From: Candidatus Poribacteria bacterium
GTDB taxonomy: Bacteria > Poribacteria > WGA-4E > PCPOR2b
Length of the DNA: 64,000 nt
Assembly: GCA_965218095.1 (NCBI GenBank)
Contig: OZ244587.1
Span: 992,001-1,056,000, forward strand
Direction of reading: 5' to 3'
Below, piece by piece: positions 18,198 through 31,546 of the stretch. Within the stretch, counting starts at the first letter, position 1. Each line of letters opens with the position of its first letter. The translations under genes and the position numbers were made by a program. The notes under the pieces were generated by a model. The model did no database searches, was not told the origin of the DNA, and worked only from the letters and a program-made list of their open reading frames with translations.

Positions 18198-20636
18198 TCA
18201 ATTTTCAATATGGTGTGTTATCCAACACCGACGCCCATCGGTCAACAACCGAATCGCGCCGAGTTGATCTGTCCGCGGCACACGACACCCTCGCTCTCGG
18301 TAACGGTTAACAACCATCTCGGAGGGAAAACCGTACCGATTCCGCTCACCGAGAGAGAAAATCGCGTATTGCGGACGCACGGCATCAAGGAGTGCTACGC
18401 TGCTAGAGGTCTTGCCCCCGTGATGTGGCACCTTGATAATCTCTGCACGGAGGTCGTGTCCCGATTCAACCAACTTCAATTCAGCTTCCTGCTCAATGTC
18501 CCCCGTAAACAGGACGCGCACATCACCATAGGTCATCTTCAGGACAAGGGAATCGTTGTTTACATCTTTATCCATTAGGTTCGTCGCGGCTTCATTGAAT
18601 GGATGCAGCAATTCCAGCCGTGCTGTCGAGGTTAGATCGATTTCCCCTGCATAACCGAGTTCATGGGGAATACCCTGCTTATCGACGATTTTATGTACGA
18701 TGCGGTGTGTCGGTGGAGACAGATCCAGGTGTGGCACACCAAGCACACGTGCAACGCCAAACTGGTGCAAAATGTGCGCGAAGCCTCCGCCATGGTCATT
18801 GTCTGGATGAGTCATGAGAAGCAGATCCAACTTGAAGACACCCTCATTGCATAGGAATGGGTCGAGGATGCGCTCGCCGCTGTCGTAACCGACCAACTTG
18901 CTACTGCCATCTTCTGCCTTGTGGATTCTTGTTGAATTGAGCCCACCATCAATAAGCATTGCCTTCCCATCGGGAAATCGGATATACGCCGCGTCCCCCT
19001 GTCTGACATCGAGAAAGGTGACTTCTAGCAAATTGCCTTCTTCTTGCCAGGCCATATCCCAGATCCAGATTGCTGTGACCGCCAACCCAATCAGTACAGC
19101 CTCCTTTCGATGTTCCCACACCCAATGCCAGTGGGCAACCGCGAGACAGCCGGCGATGTAAACGACGATGAAACCGAAAGTTGGCGGTGCTGTTTTGATG
19201 ACGGCCCACGGCTGACCGAAAAACTTGATAATCTCCAGAAAGATAAAAAGGATGAGGTGGTTGGCGTAAACAAACGGAGTCGCAAGGGGTTGCCAGATTA
19301 TGCCGAGAAGAACCGAGATTAAAGTGATGCTCACGATAAGTGCGGCGAGTCCGACGACAAAAGGGCTCGCGGCTAATCCAATCGGATACACGCGATAGAA
19401 ATGTCGTGCGATGATTGGCACCGTGCCAATTTGTGCCATCAGGGTTACGCCAAATGCGCTGATAGATCTTCTCCCGCCTATCTGATTAATGAGATTTGGT
19501 AGAATGGTATCGGCCAAACTGTTCCACTTCGGCAGAAAATAAACGATAGATGTCACAGCAGCGAAGGAGAGTTGGAATCCAACATCCCATAGTTGCGCGG
19601 GATTGACCAACAACAGAACGAGCGCAGCGAATGCTAGCAGGTTAAATAGGTCCGCATCTCGATCAATAATCATCGCAATCAGAAACAGAATCGCCATGAG
19701 CGAAGCGCGTAACACCGAAGCGCGAAACCCGACAAGGCAGGCATAAAGAATGACAATGGTAATTGTCAGAAGACAGACCGTTTTTCTTGATAAACCCAGA
19801 AGGGAAAAACCGAGAAAACAGACGGCAGCAATCAAGCCAACGTGCAATCCTGACACGGCAAGAATGTGTAGGCTGCCGCTATTCCGGAATGTATCAAGGA
19901 TCTGTTGGGGAAGTACGCTTCGTTGGCCAAGCAGCATCCCTTTGAGAACCAGAACGTGATTGGAATTGTCATGGTATGTCTTATCAATAACCGACTCCAC
20001 TCGCCGACGTAGCCTTTCCGTCCAATGCAATAGAAAAAAGCCAGATCGATGCGTCGGCGCAATCTTTTGATTTCGATGCGGATGAAGTATTCCGAAGACC
20101 TGACGACGGGCGAGATAGGCGCGGTAATCGAAGCCCCCTGGATTCTGCTGTCCTTTCGGTTGGCGCAACTCGCCTTCCACCTCAAGGTGATCCCCGTAGC
20201 GCAAATGCGCCGGCTCACGGAATCGGATCAGGAACTTCGCCTCCACGACCAAATCCGGCGTTGTCACGGATTGGATTGTACCGATTGCGTAACCCTGCTC
20301 CCACAATTCGCCGCGATCAGGTTGGTACGCCATTCGTCCTGAGAAACGCACCCGGTGATCATAGAGTTCTGGGGGGATTGGCGAAGTCAGGACGGCGCCT
20401 AAACGCAACATGCCGCAGGCAAAAATTGCAATCAGTAACAGCGCGCGTTGAATCTTTGGCATACGAAAACGCTGCTTTCGCAGATACAGTAGTCCAAGGC
20501 TGCCGATGAGGCAGATCAGCATAATCAGCCAGATCCAAAGGAGGGGAATAGACAAATATCCGGCGATAGAGATTCCGAGCGCGTAGGGAATGAGTGTGTT
20601 GAGGGCGGGTCGGGCTATAGGGTTGTTCGTCATCAC
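18198..20636 (-). CDS. comEC: DNA internalization competence protein ComEC/Rec2
   Basis: NPGGFDY, HILAVSGLHVG, GFQLSF; MBL domain THPDNDHGG and KVPHHGGKTS. Confidence 0.93.
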   Translation of the reverse strand: MMTNNPIARPALNTLIPYALGISIAGYLSIPLLWIWLIMLICLIGSLGLLYLRKQRFRMPKIQRALLLIAIFACGMLRLGAVLTSPIPPELYDHRVRFSGRMAYQPDRGELWEQGYAIGTIQSVTTPDLVVEAKFLIRFREPAHLRYGDHLEVEGELRQPKGQQNPGGFDYRAYLARRQVFGILHPHRNQKIAPTHRSGFFLLHWTERLRRRVESVIDKTYHDNSNHVLVLKGMLLGQRSVLPQQILDTFRNSGSLHILAVSGLHVGLIAAVCFLGFSLLGLSRKTVCLLTITIVILYACLVGFRASVLRASLMAILFLIAMIIDRDADLFNLLAFAALVLLLVNPAQLWDVGFQLSFAAVTSIVYFLPKWNSLADTILPNLINQIGGRRSISAFGVTLMAQIGTVPIIARHFYRVYPIGLAASPFVVGLAALIVSITLISVLLGIIWQPLATPFVYANHLILFIFLEIIKFFGQPWAVIKTAPPTFGFIVVYIAGCLAVAHWHWVWEHRKEAVLIGLAVTAIWIWDMAWQEEGNLLEVTFLDVRQGDAAYIRFPDGKAMLIDGGLNSTRIHKAEDGSSKLVGYDSGERILDPFLCNEGVFKLDLLLMTHPDNDHGGGFAHILHQFGVARVLGVPHLDLSPPTHRIVHKIVDKQGIPHELGYAGEIDLTSTARLELLHPFNEAATNLMDKDVNNDSLVLKMTYGDVRVLFTGDIEQEAELKLVESGHDLRAEIIKVPHHGGKTSSSVALLDAVRPQYAIFSLGERNRYGFPSEMVVNRYRERGCRVPRTDQLGAIRLLTDGRRCWITHHIEN

Positions 20637-21919
20637 GAAAAGATGTGCTTGGGCGCCAAGACAGTCAGCGTTAAACCGCGCGCGATTGACAACAATGTCA
20701 GTGCCAACCAGAGTCCTTGATTGCCATGAGGTCTAAGGAGATAGTATGCACAAAAGAAGATAGCTGTGGCGGCAATCATGGAATTGCGCATCGGCTTTGA
20801 AGCAGTTGCACCGAGAAAAACACCATCCCAGATGTACGCGACAGCATTTACGATTGGGGCTATGGTTATCCAGATCAGATAGGGACGGGCTTGTGCCAAG
20901 AGGTCTGCTTTGTCCGTGAACAGGGAAAACAGTCTCGACCCAAAGTATCCGAAAATCAAGCTGAACCCGCCCGCAAGGAAAAGTGCCCAAAGAAATGAAT
21001 ATCGTACCACGCTTTTCAAGCCGCGTATCTCCTTCGCCCCTTTGTATTTACCGACAAGACTCTCCGCGGCAAAGGCAAATCCATCAATACCGTAAGCGAG
21101 GATGTGTATAAACTGTAAGAGGATTGCATTGATAGCGAGTAGACTATCACTCAACGTCGCGGATTTTGCGGTAAAAAAAGCGTGGCTAAAAAGTATGCAA
21201 ACGGTACGGATAAAGATATCACGGCTAAGTACGAAAAATCTCTTCAAATCAGGAAGATGCAATACACTTTTTCGATGCCACTCAGCCAACAGATAACTGT
21301 ATTTTTTCAAGAACAGGATAACGGTGCACAGAAGCCCAAGATACTGGGCAATAACGGTTCCTAGAGCAACGCCATCGGATGTCATCAGAAGCAACTTTAC
21401 AAAGAAAAGGTTCAACACAAGATTCAACACGTTCACCATGATGGTGACTATCATGGGATATTTGGCGTTTTGCATCCCCAAAAACCAACCATGACAGACA
21501 TGAAGGCTCAGAGTGGCGGGTGCGGCATAGATACGGATATGAAAGTAGCGACGTGCAAGCTGCTCAACTTCAGTGCTGGCATCAATCAGAGAGAAACTGG
21601 CTGTTGCGATTACAGGTTGAAAGGCAATCAGCAAAAGACCACTCAAGCCCCCAACCAGCAAACCCCTTTTTAGAATCAGGATGCTCTCGTTGAAGTTGTT
21701 CGCGCCATAAGCTTGAGCTGTCAGCCCGGTTGTACCCATCCTGAGAAATCCAAATCCCCAATACACAAAACTAAAAACCATCCCACCGATGGCGATTGCC
21801 CCGAGATAGTATTCCGCTTCTAGTCGCCCCATTAAGGCAGTGTCAACGGCACTTAAAATTGGCACCGACAAATTGCTGATAATGTTCGGAATAGCGAGGC
21901 GAATAACCTGTTTGTTCAT
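20633..21919 (-). CDS. MATE family efflux transporter (DinF-like)
   Basis: LAIPNIISNLSVP...VDTA, GFLRMGTTGLTAQAYG; about 12 TM helices. Confidence 0.92.
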   Translation of the reverse strand: MNKQVIRLAIPNIISNLSVPILSAVDTALMGRLEAEYYLGAIAIGGMVFSFVYWGFGFLRMGTTGLTAQAYGANNFNESILILKRGLLVGGLSGLLLIAFQPVIATASFSLIDASTEVEQLARRYFHIRIYAAPATLSLHVCHGWFLGMQNAKYPMIVTIMVNVLNLVLNLFFVKLLLMTSDGVALGTVIAQYLGLLCTVILFLKKYSYLLAEWHRKSVLHLPDLKRFFVLSRDIFIRTVCILFSHAFFTAKSATLSDSLLAINAILLQFIHILAYGIDGFAFAAESLVGKYKGAKEIRGLKSVVRYSFLWALFLAGGFSLIFGYFGSRLFSLFTDKADLLAQARPYLIWITIAPIVNAVAYIWDGVFLGATASKPMRNSMIAATAIFFCAYYLLRPHGNQGLWLALTLLSIARGLTLTVLAPKHIFS

Positions 21920-22100
21920 GTGCTTTTAGCTACGTCTACCCAAAATGAGATTGAATTGGACTCTAAAACTTGTGGAGATTGCGACAGCGGTTGAATGCGT
22001 ATTCTAGCACTCCTACTGCACGCTGTCAATTGGATAAATTTTCTGCCCATGAAACTCATTATCTTATGCGTGGGGAATTTGTAATACAATACAAATTTCC

Positions 22101-22129
22101 TTGACATCAGGCAATGATTACTATATAAT
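22101..22129 (+). promoter_or_regulatory. consensus sigma70 promoter of rpoBC
   Basis: TTGACA-17 bp-TATAAT, ending 80 bp upstream of the rpoB ATG. Confidence 0.8.
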
Positions 22130-22208
22130 ACTACGTTGCGCCTGTGTCAAAACAGGATTCAGAAAATTAAATATGCCCTTATTTCTAATCTCAAGGTAAG
22201 GTGAAAGC

Positions 22209-25200
22209 ATGCCCCACGTCGTCAAGTATGGCAAACGTGAACGATTGTCCTTTGCAAAAATTCCGGAGATTATGGATCTCCCGGATCTGATTGAGGTTCA
22301 AAAATCTTCCTACGAAGAATTCCTTCAACGAAATATCCCTCCAGAAAAACGTAAAGATAAAGGTCTCCAAGCCGTTTTCAAGGAAATCTTTCCAATCCCC
22401 GACTTCAGCGAAACGTCCGAACTCAGGTTCGTTAGTTATTCCCTCGGCACCCCTAAGTACGACATCAATGAATGCCAATCCCGCGGATTCAGTTACGCCA
22501 TGCCAATCAAGATCTGTGTTCAATTGGTTCTCAGGGAACAAGACAACGACACCGGTGAAAATCAGCTTATTGACATCAAAGAGTCCGAAGTATACATGGG
22601 TGAAATCCCCCTGATGACCGAAAATGGCACCTTCATTATCAACGGCTCTGAGCGGGTGATTGTCAGCCAGTTGCAGCGATCTCCCGGCGCGACGTTTGGG
22701 GAGGAGACCCACACCAGCGGACAAAAACTCCATATAGCGCGAATTATCCCGTATCGCGGGGAATGGATCGAATTTGAACATGACATCAAAGACCAGATCT
22801 ATGTCCGGCTAGCTCGACGGAAAAAGATGTTCGTGACGATTCTGCTTCGAGCGCTCGGCTGGGAAACTGATGAAACCATCCTCAAGATGTACGCTAAGAC
22901 AGAGTGGGTCAGCCTCAACGACTCACTTATTGACCGGGTGATAGCTACTCCTGTCAAACATCTTGTCACTGAAGATGTCTCGCTTGAAGCGAATACGGCA
23001 TTAACAGCAGAACAGATTGATGAGTTACTTAAGGCAGGCATCAGCGAAGTTGAAGTTTTCCACAAGACGAAGACGGAGCGGGTCAGTCTGGATGACTCCC
23101 CGATTGGTCGGGTGACGTCTGTTCCTGTCAAACACTCTGTCACTGGAGATGTCTCGCTTAAAGCGAATACGGAATTGACAGCAAAACAGATTGATGATTT
23201 GCGTAAGCGAGATCCGCTGTTTCAAGTTGATTTGAATTCCGTTGCAAGGCCGGAACCGACACAGTTTGATCCTGATCCAGATTTCGATTATAAGTCACCG
23301 GAGTGGCAATCGCTAAAACGGCAGTGTCGGGAAAAGGCTGGTTGGAAATGCGAGCAATGTGGTATCGATCTTAGCGATGACCCCAAGTATCTTGATACCC
23401 ACCATGTAAAAGGCAGCCAGCATAACAATCTCGAAGACCTTATGGCTCTCTGTATTGGTTGCCATGCGGAACAACAACCGGATGAAAGACATAAACACCT
23501 CAAAAAAGAGGACCGTTATAAAGAATTTATGGATTCATACGGTGACAACTGGAAGTCTGCTATCCTCCAATGGAAGTCTGCTGTCCTCCAAAGCGATTTG
23601 ACGGATGGTGCATCAGTGTCGGATGAATGGTGCCGACAGTTTAAGGACAATGGTGCTTCTCTGTCCCCTTCCGCAATCGTACAGGTAAAGACAGAAAGTC
23701 GACGCTGGCGTGTATCGAACAAAAACAGCAGAGGTAACTTTACCATTGAGAAAGCAGGGGATACCTTCAATGTCTATCAAGATCTTGAGATTGAAGTTTT
23801 TCACAAGACGGAGCGGGTCAGTCTGGATGACTCCCTGATTGGTCGGGTGACGTCTGCTTCTGTCGAATACAAACGCCTTGTCACTGCAGATGTTTTACTT
23901 GAAGTGAATACGGAATTGACAGCAGAACAGATTGCGGATTTGCTTGAGGCAGGCGTCGGTGAGGTTGAGGTTCTAGACGCAGATGATGCAGAGGAGATTC
24001 GTTTCCTGCGGAATACGCTTGAGCGTGACCTTCAATTAGATTACACGCTGCCGCGGATTTTTCAAGTACCGTTACCGTCAGACCTCGAAGGCGATTTGAC
24101 GGATGATGCACCGGTGTCAGATGCATGGCTCCGAAAGTTTAAGGACAATGGTACTTCTCTGTCCCCTTCCGCAACCGTGCAGGTAAAAGCAGAGGGGCGC
24201 TATCGTATATCCAACAAAAACAGTAGAGATAACTTCACCATTGAGAAAGCAGGGGATACCCTCAACGTCTATCGTGGGAGTATCCAGGATCTGGCGGTTG
24301 TGGATATTTTCCGTAAGTTGCAACCGGGCGATCCTCCCACAATTGAAAGCGCATACAACCGTTTTGAAAAGATGTTCTTCGACCCGGTGCGCTATGACCT
24401 TGCAGAGGTAGGTCGGTACAAGCTCAATAGGAAGCTCGGTGATCTCTCCCTGTATCGGAATGGGAACGAAATGGTGGGTGAGCATGTGCGTATTCTGCGT
24501 AAGGAGGACATCGCCGCGGTTCTCAAATACCTGATCCAGGTCCAGAATGGAAATGGGGAGATGGACGACATTGATCACCTCGGCAACCGTCGCGTGCGGG
24601 CAGTCGGGGAACTGTTACAAAATCAGGTGCGAATGGGGATGCAGCGCGTTACGCGTGCCACCCGAGAGCGGTTGACGGTTCAAGAACTGGAGAGTATGAC
24701 GCCTCCTGATTTAATCAATCCGAAACCGCTGACCGCTGCGATTAAAGATTTCTTTGGCTCCAGCCAACTTTCCCAATTTATGCAGCAGGCCAACCCACTG
24801 GATGAATTAACCCACAAACGCCGCTTGAGCGCGTTGGGTCCAGGCGGACTGCATCGAGAACGCGCAACCTTTGAGGTCCGAGACGTTCACCGTACCCACT
24901 ATGGGCGGGTGTGTCCAATCGAGACGCCCGAAGGTCCTTCGGTTGGGTTGATTGTTTCCTTGAGCACTTACGCACGAGTAAACGCCTACGGCTTTATGGA
25001 AACACCTTATCGAAAGGTGGTGAATGGGCAAGCGACTGACCAGATTGACTACCTGACAGCGGATAAGGAGGATGCATTCACCATTGCGCAGGCGCACGCT
25101 GTCCTTGATAAGGATGGAAATATGGCAGATGATCTGATGGTCACGCGGCACAAGGACGACTTCCCCCGGAAACCCGCACAGGAGGTCGATTACATTGACG

Positions 25201-27227
25201 TTTCGCCGAAGCAGATTGTTGGCGTCTCTGCCGCACTTATTCCGTTCCTCGAACATGATGATGCAAACCGCGCCTTGATGGGGAGTAACATGCAAAGGCA
25301 AGCGGTACCGCTGCTCCGCCCGCAAGCTCCGCGTATTGGGACCGGTATGGAGTACAAGGCAGCCCATGACTCTGGCGCAGTTGTGTTGGCAAAGCGGGAT
25401 GGTGTCGTGGAGAGCGTTTCTGCCTCCGAAATCATTATCCGCACGGATGACACCTTTCGGATTGATGGTGGAGAACAGTCATTCAGCGAGATGGGATACG
25501 ATGTCTACCGGTTGGTGAATTTCAAGCGATCGAACAGTGGCACCGGTCTTCATCAACGCCCGTGTGTGGCTGCCAAGGAAGTGGTGAAAGCAGGCCAGGT
25601 GATTGCCGATGGCACCTCGACGGAAGATGGGGAACTTGCCCTCGGTAGCAACGTTCTGGTTGCGTTCATGTCTTGGGAAGGATATAATTATGAGGATGCG
25701 CTCCTCATAAGCGAATCACTGGTAACTGATGATACCTACACCTCCATCCACATCGAAGAGTTTGAGGTGGAAGCGCGGGATACGAAGATGGGGAGGGAGG
25801 AGATCACCCGGGACATCCCGAACCTCTCAGAGGAAGCCTTGAGTCAACTGGATGAAGAGGGAATTATTCATGTCGGTTCGATTGTTCGTCCCGGAAGTAT
25901 TCTGGTCGGCAAGGTTACCCCGAAAGGGGAAAGCGACCTGGGTCCAGAGGAGAAACTTCTTCGGGCTATTTTTGGTGAGAAAGTCGGTGAGGTGCGTGAC
26001 GCTTCCAAGTACGTCAGACCCGGCACAGAAGGTGTAGTGGTTGATGTGAAGGTCTTCTCCCGGAGAGAGCGAGAACGCGATCGCCAGACCGAGTTGCGGG
26101 AGCTTGCTAAAGAGAAGGAAGTCGAAAAAGAGTGGCAGGCGAAGTGCATGTTAATCAACCAGCGCAAGAACACAGAGATTCGTAACACTCTGCTCGGCAA
26201 AACGCTCGCTAGTAGCGTCTCTGATGGCGCAGAACTTCACGCCCAGCAGGGAGATGTTGTCACAGAGGAGTTGCTGGATGCAGGGGCGCCCCTCGAACAC
26301 TTCCATGTCACGGACGCTAATGCAATGGACCGCATCCAGCGCATTCGACAATTGGCGCAAGGGCGCATTGATGCCCTGACCGCCGAGCAGGAAGATCAGC
26401 TTGAGAAGATTCGCAAGGGGGATGAGTTGAAGCCCGGCGTTCTCAAACTGGTGAAGGTTTATGTGGCGAACCATCGCAAGATTGCTGTCGGCGACAAGAT
26501 GTCTGGGAGACATGGCAACAAGGGGGTGGTCGCGAAGATACTCCCGCAAGAAGACATGCCGTACCTGGAAGATGGAACCCCAGTTCAGATTGTAATGAAC
26601 CCGTTGGGCGTCCCCGGACGAATGAATGCCGGACAGATTCTGGAGGCGCATTTGGGCCGGGCAGCGGAGAAACTCGGCTTGTACATCACTACACCGGTCT
26701 TTGATGGCGCGAATGAGGAGGAGATTCGTGAGCTCTTGCACAAAGCCGGACTGCCCGAAAGCGGAAAAGCGAAGTTGTATGATGGACGTACGGGGGAACC
26801 TTTTGCACAGGAAGTCACCGTCGGACATGGGTATGTTCTCAAGCTGAATCATCTCGTTGATGATAAAATCCACGCTCGCAGCACAGGCCCTTATTCGTTG
26901 GTGACGCAGCAACCGCTCGGCGGCAAGGCGCAACAAGGCGGACAACGGTTCGGCGAGATGGAGGTGTGGGCATTGGAGGCGTATGGCGCCGCATACACCC
27001 TTCAGGAGTTGCTCACGATTAAATCCGACGATGTCGTCGGAAGGAGTAAGATCTACGAAGCAATTGTCAAAGGGGAGAATGCTCCTACGCCGGGCACTCC
27101 AGAATCGTTTAACGTCCTGGTAAAAGAATTACAAAGCCTCTGCCTCGATGTGAAATTAGAACAAGCATCTGGTGACGCAGAGACATTTGACATTGACGTC
27201 ACGAATTGGACGGCAGAAAAAGAATGA
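22209..27227 (+). CDS. rpoB: DNA-directed RNA polymerase subunit beta, with large nested insertions including an HNH domain
   Basis: [61 protein letters not shown] motifs; 1672 aa. Confidence 0.98.
22896..23976 (+). repeat. three tandem copies of a ~55 aa beta-lobe insertion module in rpoB (starts near 22896, 23070, 23805)
   Basis: KTE(W/R)VSL(N/D)DS.I.RV...NT(A/E)LTA.QI.(E/D)L repeated; DNA near 23050-23130 is almost identical to 23791-23865. Confidence 0.85.
23280..23549 (+). other. HNH endonuclease-like domain embedded in frame in RpoB
   Basis: [20 protein letters not shown]...[28 protein letters not shown]...H. Confidence 0.85.
23592..24275 (+). repeat. two copies of a ~65 aa module in rpoB (23592-23780 and 24090-24275)
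   Basis: DLTD.A.VSD.W.R.FKDNG.SLSPSA.VQVK.E...[20 protein letters not shown] occurs twice. Confidence 0.85.
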
Positions 27228-27316
27228 GGCGTGAAACGTAAAGCGTAAGAGGGAATTAGGGCGTATTGACAAATAGCTCCAAAGACTCATCAGATCGACA
27301 GAAAAGGAGACGCCAG

Positions 27317-30300
27317 ATGTCGAAAAACCTGAACAATTTTGACGCGATTTCAATCCGGATTGCTTCGCCGGAACAGATCAAGGAATGGGTAAAACCGACC
27401 GCATGCCACCAACGGGCCAGTACGTGCACAATAGGAAACTGCACATGCGGCGAAGTCCAGAAGCCCGAGACTATTAATTATCGCACATTCCGTCCCGAAC
27501 GAGACGGTTTGTTCTGTGAGGCGATCTTCGGGCCTCAGAAAGATTGGGAGTGTGGCTGCGGTAAGTACAAACGGATTAAACATAAAGGGGTGATTTGCGA
27601 TCGATGCGGGGTCGAAGTCACGCAGCAGAAGGTGCGCCGTGAACGGATGGGGTATATCCAGTTAGCGGCGCCGGTCTCGCATATCTGGTTCTTCAAAGGA
27701 CTCCCCTCGCGGATCGGGCTCTTTTTAGATCTCCCATTTCGTGATATAGAACGTGTCATCTATTTCGAGTCGTTTATTGTTCTGGAAGTCAATGATCCTG
27801 ACTGTGATCTGGAGGTGAAGCAACTCCTGACAGAGGAGGAGTACACCCAATTGACAACACAGTTTCCTGATGGCTTCCGTGCCGGCATGGGGGCGGATGC
27901 GATTAGGGAACTGCTGGAGCAGATTGATCTAGATCAAGAAGTGGAAACCCTGCGTGCAGAACTCGCCGAAACCGCAAGCAAGCAGAAAGCTCGGAAACTC
28001 TCCAAGCGGTTGAAGCTGGTGCTCGGTTTCAAAAAATCAGGCAATCAGCCGCACTGGATGATCCTTACGGTGATTCCGGTCATCCCCCCGGACTTACGTC
28101 CACTGGTTGCTCTCGACGGGGGACGCTTCGCCACCAGTGATCTGAATGATCTCTACCGGCGGGTGATTAACCGGAATAACCGCCTGAAGCGACTGATGGA
28201 ACTCCGGGCGCCCGAGGTAATTATCCGCAATGAGAAACGAATGCTCCAGGAAGCTGTAGATGCACTGCTGGATAATGGTCGACATGGACGCGTGGTGCGG
28301 GGGCCGGGCAATCGTCCGCTGAAATCCCTTTCCGATATGCTCAAAGGGAAGCCGGGGCGATTTCGTCAGAACCTGCTTGGCAAGCGTGTAGACTACTCAG
28401 GACGGACGGTCATCGTGGTCGGTCCTGAGCTCCAGTTGGACCAGTGTGGCCTCCCGAAGAAGATGGCATTGGAGCTATTTAAGCCGTTCATCATCCATAA
28501 GCTGCAAGCGAAGGGCTATGCCCACACCATCAAACGTGCGAAGAACATGGCAGAACAGGTCTCGCCAGAGGTGTGGGAGGTCCTGGAAGAGGTGATTGAC
28601 GAACATCCGGTTTTGCTGAACCGCGCCCCGACACTACACCGATTAGGGATTCAGGCGTTTCAACCCCTCTTGGTGGAGGGAAAGGCAATCCGGATCAATC
28701 CGCTTGTGTGTGAGGCATTCAATGCGGACTTCGATGGGGACCAGATGGCGGTGCACGTCCCGTTGAGCGTCGAAGCACAGATCGAGGCAAAACTACTGAT
28801 GATGGCGACACGAAACCTCCTGAAGCCTGCTCATGGTGACGCGATTGCGGTACCAAGTAAGGATGTCGCGCTCGGTTGCAATTTCCTTACGAAGGAGATT
28901 CCGGAAAATCGACGGGAGGAGGTGTGCCGGGTATCCATCCCACGGACCTATCGCGATACGGGTGAGATCATCCTTGCGCATGAGTGCGGTGTACTGGGGC
29001 TGCACGATCCAGTAAAGCTCTACCTTGATGGAGCAACGCAGCTAATTGAGACAACGGTGGGTCGAGTCATCTTCAACCAGATTGTTCCGCCGGAACTGCG
29101 ATTTACGGACCCCGAAACGAGAGAATCGCTACCTTTTATCAACCTGGAGATGCGCTCTGGAGATCTCTCCAAGCTGGTGTCCCGTGCGTTTGAGGAGCTG
29201 GGCAATCGCCGCACCGTTGAGTTTATCGATGAGTTAAAACGGCTCGGTTTTCATTACGCAACCCTGGCCGGGGTCTCCATCGCCATGCAGGACATGATCA
29301 TCCCTCCCGAGAAGCAGGGGTTGATAACGACTGCACGGAAGCAGGTGGAACAGATTGAAGCCGATTTCCAAAGTGGCGGTATGAGTGAAGGCGAACGGTA
29401 CAACAAAGTCATTGATATCTGGCATCAACTGATTGCGCAAATCGAAACCGCCTTGTTTGATGGACTGGCACAGGGACGGGATGATGAGGTTGAAGGGTTC
29501 AATCCCGTCCATATCATGGTGGACTCCGGCGCGATTTCCCGAAGCAAGCGGGATTCAATTCGCCAGTTGAGCGGACTGCGCGGGTTGATGACCAAGCCCT
29601 CCGGAGAAATTATTGAGCAGCCAATCGAGTCCTGCTTCCACGAAGGGTTGTCAGTTCTCGAATACTTCATTTCTACGCACGGAGCGCGGAAGGGACTTGC
29701 CGACACAGCGATTAAGACCGCCAGCAGCGGATACTTGACGCGGAAACTGGTTGATGTCGCGCAAGATGTGATAGTGACGATGATCGACTGTGGAACATTG
29801 GGTGATGTTACCAAGACGGCAGGCGAAGAGGAAGATAATACACTTGCTGAACGGATTTTCGGACGCACAGCGGCGGAAGACAATGTCGACCCGAATACAG
29901 GTGAACTGCTTGTCTCAAAGGATGATCGGATTACCCACCAAATAGCACAGCAGATCGAGGCGGTTGGTATCCCCGAAGTCCACGTCCGATCGGTGCTGAC
30001 ATGCGAAGCCCTGCATGGTGTGTGTGCGAGGTGTTACGGGACCGATTTGACAAGCGGACATCTCGTGGACGTCGGGGAGGCAATTGGTATCATTGCTGCA
30101 CAATCGATTGGGGAGCCGGGGACGCAGTTGACAATGCGGACGTTCCACACGGGCGGTACCGTCAGTGGCGGCGGGTTCCAATCGAGGGTTGAAGCTCGGC
30201 ACGACGGGATAGTGCAGTACCACAACAACGTCAGGTTCGTTGAACGACCGGTTCAGGCTCAATCAGCAACCAACGCTCAACCATCAGAAGGGGAAGTCTT

Positions 30301-31546
30301 TGAAAAAACTATCATCTCTCGAAATGCGCAACTCCGCATCGTTGATGCGAACGAACGCACAGTGGAACGGCACAATGTAGATGTCGGAGCGCGTCTCTGT
30401 GTCGAAGATGGACAGGTAGTAAGCAAAGGGGATGTCCAAAACGGCGTACAACCCACCCTGCTGCTGGAATGGGATCCGTATCGAGTGCCGATTCTGACGG
30501 AGGAAGAAGGGCACGGCGTGTTCAAAGATATTATCGAAGGGAAAACGATGCGCGAGGACAAAGCCACCGGTTTGGCAGAGTGGGTTATTATTGAATATAA
30601 AGGGGAGGATCAACCGCAAATTGAGATCCACAACGATGCTGGAGAAGTCCTCGCCAGTTACCTGATGCCAACAGGTGCACACCTTTCTATCACAGATGGT
30701 GAAGAGGTTAGTAAGGGCACGGTCCTGGCCCGTCTCCCTCGCGAGACAGCAAAGAGCCGAGACATCGTGACAGGGTTGCCACGGGTCACGGAACTCTTTG
30801 AGGCGCGACGGCCGAAGGACACCGCTGTCATCTCCAAGATTGAAGGATATGTCGAATTAGAGAGCCCTAGCCGTGGTGTACGCATCCTGCGCGTGGTGGA
30901 CGGAGACTTTCAGGAGAGCCATCGCATTCCACAGGGCAAACACCTAATTGTGCAGAATAATGACAGGGTAGCAGCAGGAGAACGGTTGACAGATGGACCA
31001 ATCAACCCGCACGATATCCTCGAAGTGAAAGGGGGGGAGGCAGTCCAGAACTACCTAGTCGATGAGGTGCAGGACGTGTATCGGAAGCAGGGCGAACGCA
31101 TCAATGACAAGCACATTGAAGTGATTGTGCGGCAGATGCTGAATAAGGTAAAGATTAAGCATCCAGGCGATACGGATTTCCTCGAAGAGGACGAAGTGGA
31201 CCGGTCGATCTTTAATCGAATAAACCGCCGTGTTCAGGAAAACGACGGACAGCCTGCCACAGCGGAGCCGATTCTCCAGGGCATCACAAAAGCCTCTCTT
31301 TCCACTGAGAGCTTCATTTCCGCGGCATCGTTCCAACAGACCACCAATGTCCTGACGAAGGCTTCGGTCATCGGCAAGCGCGATCGGCTGGTGGGTTTGA
31401 AGGAGAATGTCATAATGGGACACCTTATCCCCGCAGGAACGGGGGTGGGGCAGTTCCGGAAGATTCAGATTTTCCCCACAACGGAACCACAACCAGAGCT
31501 TCCAGATGCTTCACCGTTGCCAATCGATGAACAGGCGGCCGATTGA
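27317..31546 (+). CDS. rpoC: DNA-directed RNA polymerase subunit beta'
   Basis: KPETINYRT, Zn-finger CxC...CxxC, catalytic [20 protein letters not shown]; AAGGAG RBS before ATG 27317. Confidence 0.98.

Follow-up and report, generated by a model that had tools for sequence, protein, structure and literature searches.

RNA polymerase (RNAP) is a textbook case of a conserved essential enzyme, and its lineage-specific insertions have so far been described as structural modules (BBM2/BEAN and SBHM/HABAS). In the available part of PMC2939025, the insertion beta-i4 is defined as one to six BBM2 modules placed in the beta2 lobe, and that of E. coli accepts deletions and insertions and reaches roughly toward the downstream DNA. 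The same insertion is known as SI1 or 'dispensable region I', and its tandem BBM2 modules are the BEAN domains of PMC11515920. Here we describe the rpoB gene in a 64,000-nucleotide stretch of the genome of a Candidatus Poribacteria bacterium (contig OZ244587.1, positions 992,001 to 1,056,000, hereafter the window), which belongs to a sponge-symbiont phylum. The encoded beta subunit, RpoB, carries BBM2-like repeats at the beta-i4 position. Whereas the described beta-i4 inserts, as far as the available parts of these sources go, hold BBM2 only, the insert of the Poribacteria protein adds an HNH nuclease domain in the same reading frame and two copies of another domain, here called X. The best reading of this arrangement, to which we give a probability of roughly one half, is a splicing-free, homing-type selfish nuclease cassette that is tolerated in flexible surface insertions.

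Homing-type nucleases fused to a host coding sequence without splicing have a precedent in fungal mitochondrial rps3, in which LAGLIDADG endonucleases are inserted in frame. The rps3 case differs from the rpoB HNH in nuclease family, in its organelle genome, and in the host gene. The HNH homing endonucleases, for example MobE of phage T4 (PMC2790892, available in part), share with the rpoB HNH the fold that its sequence predicts, the residence in a conserved essential host gene, the patchiness, the filled and empty alleles, and the decayed copies. As in a homing endonuclease, the rpoB HNH is present or absent at one site, and its phylogeny is decoupled from that of the host. It differs in its housing, which is neither a self-splicing element nor a free-standing gene: the rpoB HNH lies in frame inside RpoB and stays in the host protein. 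The nearest printed precedent that we found, in the available part of PMC7824862, is the beta-like RNAP subunit of jumbo phages that is fused to an HD phosphohydrolase, and in which a hydrolytic domain is thus covalently carried on a beta homologue. However, there the fusion is terminal, the enzyme is that of a phage, and HD is not a nuclease, whereas in Poribacteria the domains are inserted in the cellular beta and beta' subunits. An earlier sequence-only reading of the window knew of no described RpoB-HNH fusion, and full-text searches likewise found no description of RpoB or RpoC as the host of a nuclease domain, with supplements and most subscription journals outside the search. The main text of PMC11515920, which treats RNAP insertional domains (2024), contains 0 occurrences of HNH, nuclease, endonuclease, intein, and homing, and term searches in the available parts of PMC11515920, PMC3444138, PMC5888179, PMC7824862, and PMC2939025 gave no nuclease within RpoB or RpoC.

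The rpoB gene is read in one frame without stops through the HNH region, as had been claimed from the sequence alone, and the residues quoted in that reading for positions 23208-23790, including DTHH, match the translation exactly. The genome is closed, consists of one contig of 6,350,489 bases, and holds no separate, normal rpoB elsewhere. The unspliced protein has a calculated mass of 187.6 kDa and contains, in order, the complete set of Rpb2 Pfam domains; its TIGR02013 score is 1747.5 bits (cut-off 801). The insert is located between the anchors ILLRALG and PGDPPT, that is, in beta-i4/SI1, which separates the shared regions b6 and b7 in the beta2 lobe, where the sequence-only reading had placed it. 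The anchors are 495 aa apart, and the same anchors in the simplest relatives are spaced by 115-121 aa. The G+C content is 47.5% in the lobe insert, 45.8% in the HNH, and 53.7% in the rpoB core and rpoC.

The lobe insert is built from repeats (Table 1). The BBM2-like repeats R1, R2, and R3 of about 58 aa are 71-92% alike in DNA, and the X copies X1 and X2 are 86-88% alike. In the region of R1, TIGR02386, an rpoC module, gives a weak match (aa 231-284, E 0.0041). The HNH and X parts of the insert are not BBM2, and X matches no Pfam or PHROG family. The X2 copy is found in nearly all rpoB genes of the neighbouring genus g4. The left linker of the HNH contains the junction FQVDL(N/D)SVARPEP, which is common to all lobe-site HNH alleles. 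The range given in the sequence-only reading, positions 23208-23790 (aa 334-527), does contain the in-frame HNH, but the domain ends near aa 461 and the part after it is the unrelated X1; the X domain and the repeat structure had been overlooked. Weak relatives of X (30-38% identity, per-genome E 1e-4 to 1e-6) occur in the wing/scaffold domain of SecA of genome G013 (L090, aa ~711-774), and another relative of 30-38% identity in an 874-aa YibE/F-like membrane protein of the source genome (L089, G000:C1:2633500-2639000). Several conserved proteins of the family may thus have taken up X as a small insertional domain.

Table 1. Features of the rpoB region, in positions of the window.
Feature	Position	Strand	Description or basis
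rpoB	22209-27227	+	1672 aa, one uninterrupted open reading frame; sole rpoB of the genome
ILLRALG (aa 211-217)	22839-22859	+	Conserved anchor before the lobe insertion; alignment
BBM2-like repeat R1 (aa 230-287)	22896-23069	+	DNA repeat families D1-D3
BBM2-like repeat R2 (aa 288-333)	23070-23207	+	C-terminal end truncated; DNA repeats
Left linker of HNH (aa 334-360)	23208-23288	+	Hypervariable between near-identical strains
HNH nuclease domain (aa 361-461)	23289-23591	+	Zinc-finger/catalytic core and helical C-terminal extension (Y..FM..YG..W)
First CxxC (C381, C384)	23349-23360	+	Invariant in 27/27 aligned family members
DTHH (H398, H399 invariant)	23394-23405	+	Presumed general base of the HNH motif
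N406, N of H-N-H	23424-23426	+	Kept in at least 90% of aligned members
CIGCH, second CxxC and H419	23451-23465	+	Invariant
H428, additional invariant histidine	23490-23492	+	27-member alignment
Tandem duplication of 21 nt (WKSAILQ / WKSAVLQ)	23550-23591	+	HNH right linker; DNA repeat family D7
X1, first copy of the 65-aa domain (SDLTDG...NVYQ; aa 462-527)	23592-23789	+	DNA repeats D4, D5
BBM2-like repeat R3 (aa 533-593)	23805-23987	+	DNA repeats; followed by a linker before X2
X2, second copy of X (aa 628-690)	24090-24278	+	DNA repeats
PGDPPT (aa 706-711)	24324-24341	+	Conserved anchor after the lobe insertion; alignment
rpoC (beta')	27266-31546	+	1426 aa; without a nuclease insert in this genome
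ComEC-type competence protein	18198-20636	-	Competence and metallo-beta-lactamase domains
MatE transporter	20633-21919	-	

Sequence comparison identifies residues 361-461 as a genuine HNH domain of the HNH (His-Me finger) endonuclease superfamily. The best matches are of the McrA and ZorE types and have the same CxxC...HH...N...CxxCH layout. In NCBIfam, the HNH part of ZorE matches with E 1.8e-12 and 46.8 bits and IscB with E 9.3e-5, and among 23 PHROG families at E<=1, 20 are annotated as HNH endonuclease (best 1.9e-10), which bears out the pattern of two CxxC pairs and HH noticed in the sequence-only reading. Only the HNH core of about 70 aa is similar, with scores well under the full-length cut-offs of both families (46.8 bits, against a cut-off of 600 bits for ZorE), and the rpoB HNH is a member of neither the McrA nor the ZorE family. 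The Pfam HNH family PF01844 scores 16.9 bits, under its cut-off of 21.4. By profile, the solved structure that comes closest is 6ghc, the McrA HNH domain (E 0.0024). In an alignment of 27 family members, nine of them RNAP-embedded and 18 free-standing, residues W379, C381, C384, L395, H398, H399, L414, C415, C418, H419, and H428 are invariant in 27/27. The catalytic and zinc residues of the rpoB HNH look intact.

A phmmer search of 1.84 billion representatives with the HNH gave 1606 matches at E<=1e-3, of which 133 reach E<=1e-10. Protein searches returned 150 proteins with the HNH profile, and 3 and 4 with a single HNH sequence. The survey beyond Poribacteria used word-indexed searches that cover proteins of up to 2000 aa, with RpoC forms longer than 2000 aa outside the range. 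Most of the free-standing relatives of 265-300 aa carry the precomputed family label PF26739. The free-standing member P0021 (196 aa) combines the HNH with a T5orf172 domain (Pfam E 1e-14), which we take to be GIY-YIG-like, and P0009 (303 aa) holds a second, canonical Pfam HNH domain. A phage or plasmid origin of the rpoB HNH was considered and rejected, as the matching genes are only distant (31-40% identical).

It is extremely improbable that the mature protein lacks the segment through excision of a cryptic intein or intron, or that the gene is an assembly chimera or a pseudogene. The sequence-only reading had seen neither intein nor intron, and no Hint or intein Pfam family is found, either in the full-length protein (E<=0.1) or over aa 228-730, where Pfam at E<=10 gives only four weak and unrelated matches. 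The insert junctions are FQV/DLNS and LQ/SDLT, with neither the terminal C/S/T nor the HN followed by C/S/T of an intein, and the 115-aa insert of the related genome G011 leaves no space for a Hint domain, being too short for the Hint blocks. Over 22000-24600, the number of Rfam matches at E<=1 is 0, with no group I or group II intron, and the frame is continuous in the only rpoB of the genome.

The region was also compared with sequencing data from four runs, whose contigs are short and broken at the internal repeats, so that none spans the entire 1.8 kb. In run X1, a 764-nt contig extends over 23071-23834, and thus over both HNH junctions, with 0 differences, which speaks against the chimera that the sequence-only reading had wished to exclude. 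In two RNA libraries, 23286-23456, 23544-23735, and 23735-23944 are represented by contigs, without a joint that removes the HNH; these contigs show the presence of the sequence in the libraries and are no proof of transcription. The support from the run contigs against splicing or artefact is modest, because they are contigs only, run X1 is perhaps the source sample itself, and the RNA libraries may carry DNA. Stronger support comes from independent assemblies, since the same architecture and junction sequence are present in G024, G017, P0003, and P0005. In run X5, which belongs to another study, contigs with a depth of about 30 hold the flanks 22700-23057 and 23947-24500, and the only contigs for 23071-23941 come from a variant allele at depth 2, with no contig joining across. 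The dominant strain there might be without the R2-HNH-X1 block, or have it replaced. The single joint reported, in run X9 (from 23666 to 24190, side 25, separated by 25 other letters), falls between the X copies and was rejected as splicing; we take it instead for a contig that belongs to a different allele and aligns over the X repeat.

Close relatives provide the HNH-less alleles that the sequence-only reading had proposed to look for. The genomes compared are all metagenome-assembled or representatives. Among the 28 rpoB genes of family f1, which includes the source genome of the window (G000), the lobe insert ranges from 106 to 584 aa and the number of repeats is variable. The basal genera have one BBM2, genus g4, G000, and G005 add X, and some have extra BBM2. 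The HNH is carried by four of the 28 (G000, G011, G024, and G017). G011 and the empty allele of G009 are 94-98% identical in nucleotides, and G011 has a clean insertion of 115 aa, which falls between LP.SFQV and SDLTDGAPVSDAW; the identity drops, to 78-80%, only in the windows that adjoin the insertion. G024 is 96-100% identical to G009 outside aa 219-600, and G017 is 97-100% identical to the empty allele of G014 outside aa 234-790.

The phylogeny of the HNH is decoupled from that of its host gene. In a tree of the rpoB core, the four HNH carriers stand in three separate places, each beside an HNH-less sister, and the backbones of G011, G024, and G009 are sisters (0.98-1.0). In the HNH tree, a single clade could comprise all eight lobe copies, with weak support (67/74), and G024 groups with G017 (96/85, starred) and G011 with G000 (92/86), in conflict with the backbone tree. 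The synonymous divergence (dS) between G000 and three genomes of g4, a different genus, is 1.1-2.0 in the core and 0.40-0.44 in the HNH, and that between the sister backbones of G024 and G011 is 0.14-0.19 in the core and 0.415 in the HNH, all estimated from short segments. A sliding window over G000 and G024 shows low synonymous divergence across the entire lobe block (aa 225-690). The filled and empty alleles, the conflict between the HNH and backbone trees, and the low dS of the HNH argue that the HNH cassette moves horizontally between rpoB alleles.

The ratio of nonsynonymous to synonymous divergence (dN/dS) is 0.33-0.62 in the HNH and 0.02-0.06 in the core, as rough values from about 120 codons (NG86), and the constraint on the HNH is relaxed but real. 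P0002 and P0003, the cores of which are 98.7-99.4% identical, are 93% identical in the HNH core and 76% and 51% identical in the linkers, which also contain indels; HNH core and linkers diverge in the same manner in the variant contig of run X5. P0006, a 222-aa rpoB fragment from a metagenome, has the HNH twice in tandem at the lobe site. In the first copy, HAHR stands in place of the invariant HH and CTGCY in place of CxxCH, with two invariant histidines lost, and it reads as a decaying copy.

Nuclease modules are not restricted to the beta2 lobe. A scan of 159 genomes of the order found an HNH homologue at E<=1e-8 in 68 genomes, mostly in open reading frames of 100-360 aa. In addition to the lobe site, the HNH occupies a second rpoB site after PYGFLETPYRPV in G040 (L037, aa ~650-720) and G031 (L038, aa ~660-730), where it is preceded by short YKVT repeats and followed by about five 55-aa repeats (W.ITEVN..EC.L..G). 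It is also found in frame in the rpoC genes of G056 (L056, 2114 aa), G092 (L057, 2383 aa), and G135 (L058, 2084 aa). The HNH of G056 and G135 is within the trigger-loop insertion, after TFHTGGAVE, and that of G092 is upstream of VRVRSILTCEAEKGTC; all three copies keep CxxC...HH...N...CxxCH. In the HNH tree, the second-site rpoB copies of G031 and G040 and the rpoC copy of G092 form one clade (98/85, starred), to which the rpoC copy of G056 is sister (98/78). The cassettes of G092 rpoC and of the second rpoB site, which come from the same genus, have the YKVT and ~55-aa flanking repeats in common, as seen by eye. This clade and the common repeats indicate that the HNH moved between rpoB and rpoC.

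Two other nuclease families occupy similar positions. REase_MTES_1575, which is Vsr-like, is present in the rpoB of G017 (L042, aa ~615-715; E 2.5e-29, 101.6 bits, cut-off 38.2), before X2. It lies in the same type of BBM2-to-X linker as the HNH and shares linkers with it. In rpoC, REase_MTES_1575 occurs in G025, G093, G157, and G137 (L108-L111), confirmed as rpoC by NADFDGD in the same open reading frame, at both rpoC positions that are occupied by the HNH in other genomes; four more candidate open reading frames of 2121-2386 aa are found in G102, G142, G082, and G099. An SNase domain (PF00565; E 1.9e-14, 54.4 bits, cut-off 21) is located together with an extra BBM2-like module in the N-terminal part of the RpoB of G015 (L041, aa ~140-236), after FLQRNTLP, and is the only RNAP-embedded SNase among the 159 genomes. 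Putative nuclease modules from three families have thus entered both large RNAP subunits repeatedly, at no fewer than four positions, and are found in several closed genomes.

Two other rpoB genes have extensions of a different kind. That of G037 (L039, 1784 aa) contains 55-aa repeats (W.ITEV...C.L..G) at aa ~240-370 and ~1190-1480 without an HNH, and these regions match no Pfam family. That of G021 (L040, aa ~1480-1706) has a C-terminal extension of about 200 aa after tandem APDTFDL repeats. The extension contains a D...VDVK motif that by eye is reminiscent of PD-(D/E)xK nucleases; it has no Pfam match and one weak match to a PHROG of unknown function.

The recurrence of nucleases on one enzyme raises the possibility of a function for the host. 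The HNH, like the REase_MTES_1575 and SNase domains of the relatives, could be a domesticated, polymerase-tethered nuclease that is positioned next to the downstream DNA and cuts foreign or damaged DNA in transcription or resolves transcription-replication conflicts. This was the second option of the sequence-only reading, and it is the main rival of the favoured one, although we consider it less probable. It gains from the intact catalytic and zinc residues in all nine complete embedded copies together with a dN/dS below 1, from the near confinement of the family in long open reading frames to rpoB and rpoC (nine of ten, at least 700 aa), which are its only hosts among housekeeping genes, and from the recruitment of three nuclease folds to one enzyme. 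In the E. coli model of PMC2939025, which was available in part, beta-i4 and the beta' trigger-loop insertion point toward the downstream DNA; however, according to the same part of that source, the E. coli beta-i4 is acidic and tilted about 15 A off the DNA. The HNH is present in only nine of the 159 genomes of the order and in four of the 28 f1 rpoB genes, and the closest sisters are without it. Its dN/dS is about ten times that of the core, its linkers are hypervariable, and one tandem copy has decayed. A non-specific nuclease on each RNAP molecule should also endanger the host. A broader form of the same idea, to which we give a similarly low standing, is that the Poribacteria RNAP could be a carrier of exchangeable nucleases (HNH, the Vsr-like REase_MTES_1575, and SNase) on beta and beta' appendages to either side of the downstream DNA, with transcription-coupled DNA cutting in defence or conflict clearing. 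The third option of the sequence-only reading, a decoy or sensor against phage RNAP inhibitors, has no evidence for it.

Alternatively, the insert could have grown by neutral accretion, in which modules (BBM2, X, HNH, and others) are shuffled by ordinary recombination and the HNH is a passenger without consequential activity. The wide span of lobe insert lengths and repeat counts in the relatives, the X-like domains in SecA and the YibE/F-like protein, and the exchange of the whole block, not of the HNH alone, in G024 and G017 are in keeping with such a history. However, nine active-site and zinc columns are invariant in embedded and free copies while the adjoining linkers drift, which points to selection on the HNH itself, and the recurring domains are nuclease folds rather than random ones. 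We regard neutral accretion as improbable.

The selfish, homing-type cassette accommodates more of these observations. It is favoured because of the patchy presence of the HNH, the empty sisters, the decoupled phylogeny, the relaxed constraint, the decay of a copy, the sharing of sites between HNH and Vsr-like modules, and the jumps between rpoB and rpoC. HNH and Vsr-like folds are both known folds of homing endonucleases. In the proposed course of events, about 115 aa (the HNH and its linkers) would be inserted in the linker between a BBM2 module and X, in beta-i4/SI1 of RpoB, and translated within the ~188 kDa beta subunit. The cassette would pass from one rpoB allele to another, either through homing-like gene conversion or, once DNA has been taken up, through plain homologous recombination, and would persist by residing in a flexible, insertion-tolerant appendage of an essential and highly conserved gene. 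Since it sits in such an appendage, no intein or intron would be needed. DNA cutting by the HNH, a spread driven by this cutting, and an effect on the host that is neutral or mildly costly are all inferred.

Directly upstream of rpoB, in divergent orientation, are the ComEC-type gene and the MatE gene, and the usual genes before rpoB, rplKAJL, are not upstream of it here. The DNA-uptake gene of the ComEC type is circumstantial evidence for a possible route by which incoming alleles could arrive.

Several points weigh against the selfish cassette. The splicing-free homing nuclease was the first option of the sequence-only reading, and it gives the best fit to the empty alleles, the trees, the dS values, and the decayed copy, but it presupposes site-specific cleavage of the empty allele and a preference for that allele. 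Allelic recombination among co-resident symbionts would explain the horizontal movement equally well. The catalytic and zinc residues are kept in 9/9 complete RNAP-embedded copies. The HNH is small and without a recognisable DNA-recognition module of its own, and it is most closely related to small cellular proteins whose N-terminal parts vary (transmembrane, TPR, DUF4268, and T5orf172) and which are not characterised homing endonucleases; phage and plasmid HNH genes are 31-40% identical to it. Ten open reading frames of at least 700 aa hold the HNH, of which nine are rpoB or rpoC and the tenth encodes a TPR protein (G091), and a generic selfish element might also appear in other essential genes. 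To our knowledge, SNase, which is embedded in the rpoB of G015, is not a known homing-endonuclease fold.

The insertion points mark sites for grafting large foreign domains onto bacterial RNAP. If a host function is true, the Poribacteria enzyme would be the first polymerase-borne DNA nuclease. If the HNH is selfish, it would be a natural case of a homing-type element without an intein or intron, sheltered in a tolerant surface appendage, and would widen both the definition of homing-type elements and the range of places in which to seek them.

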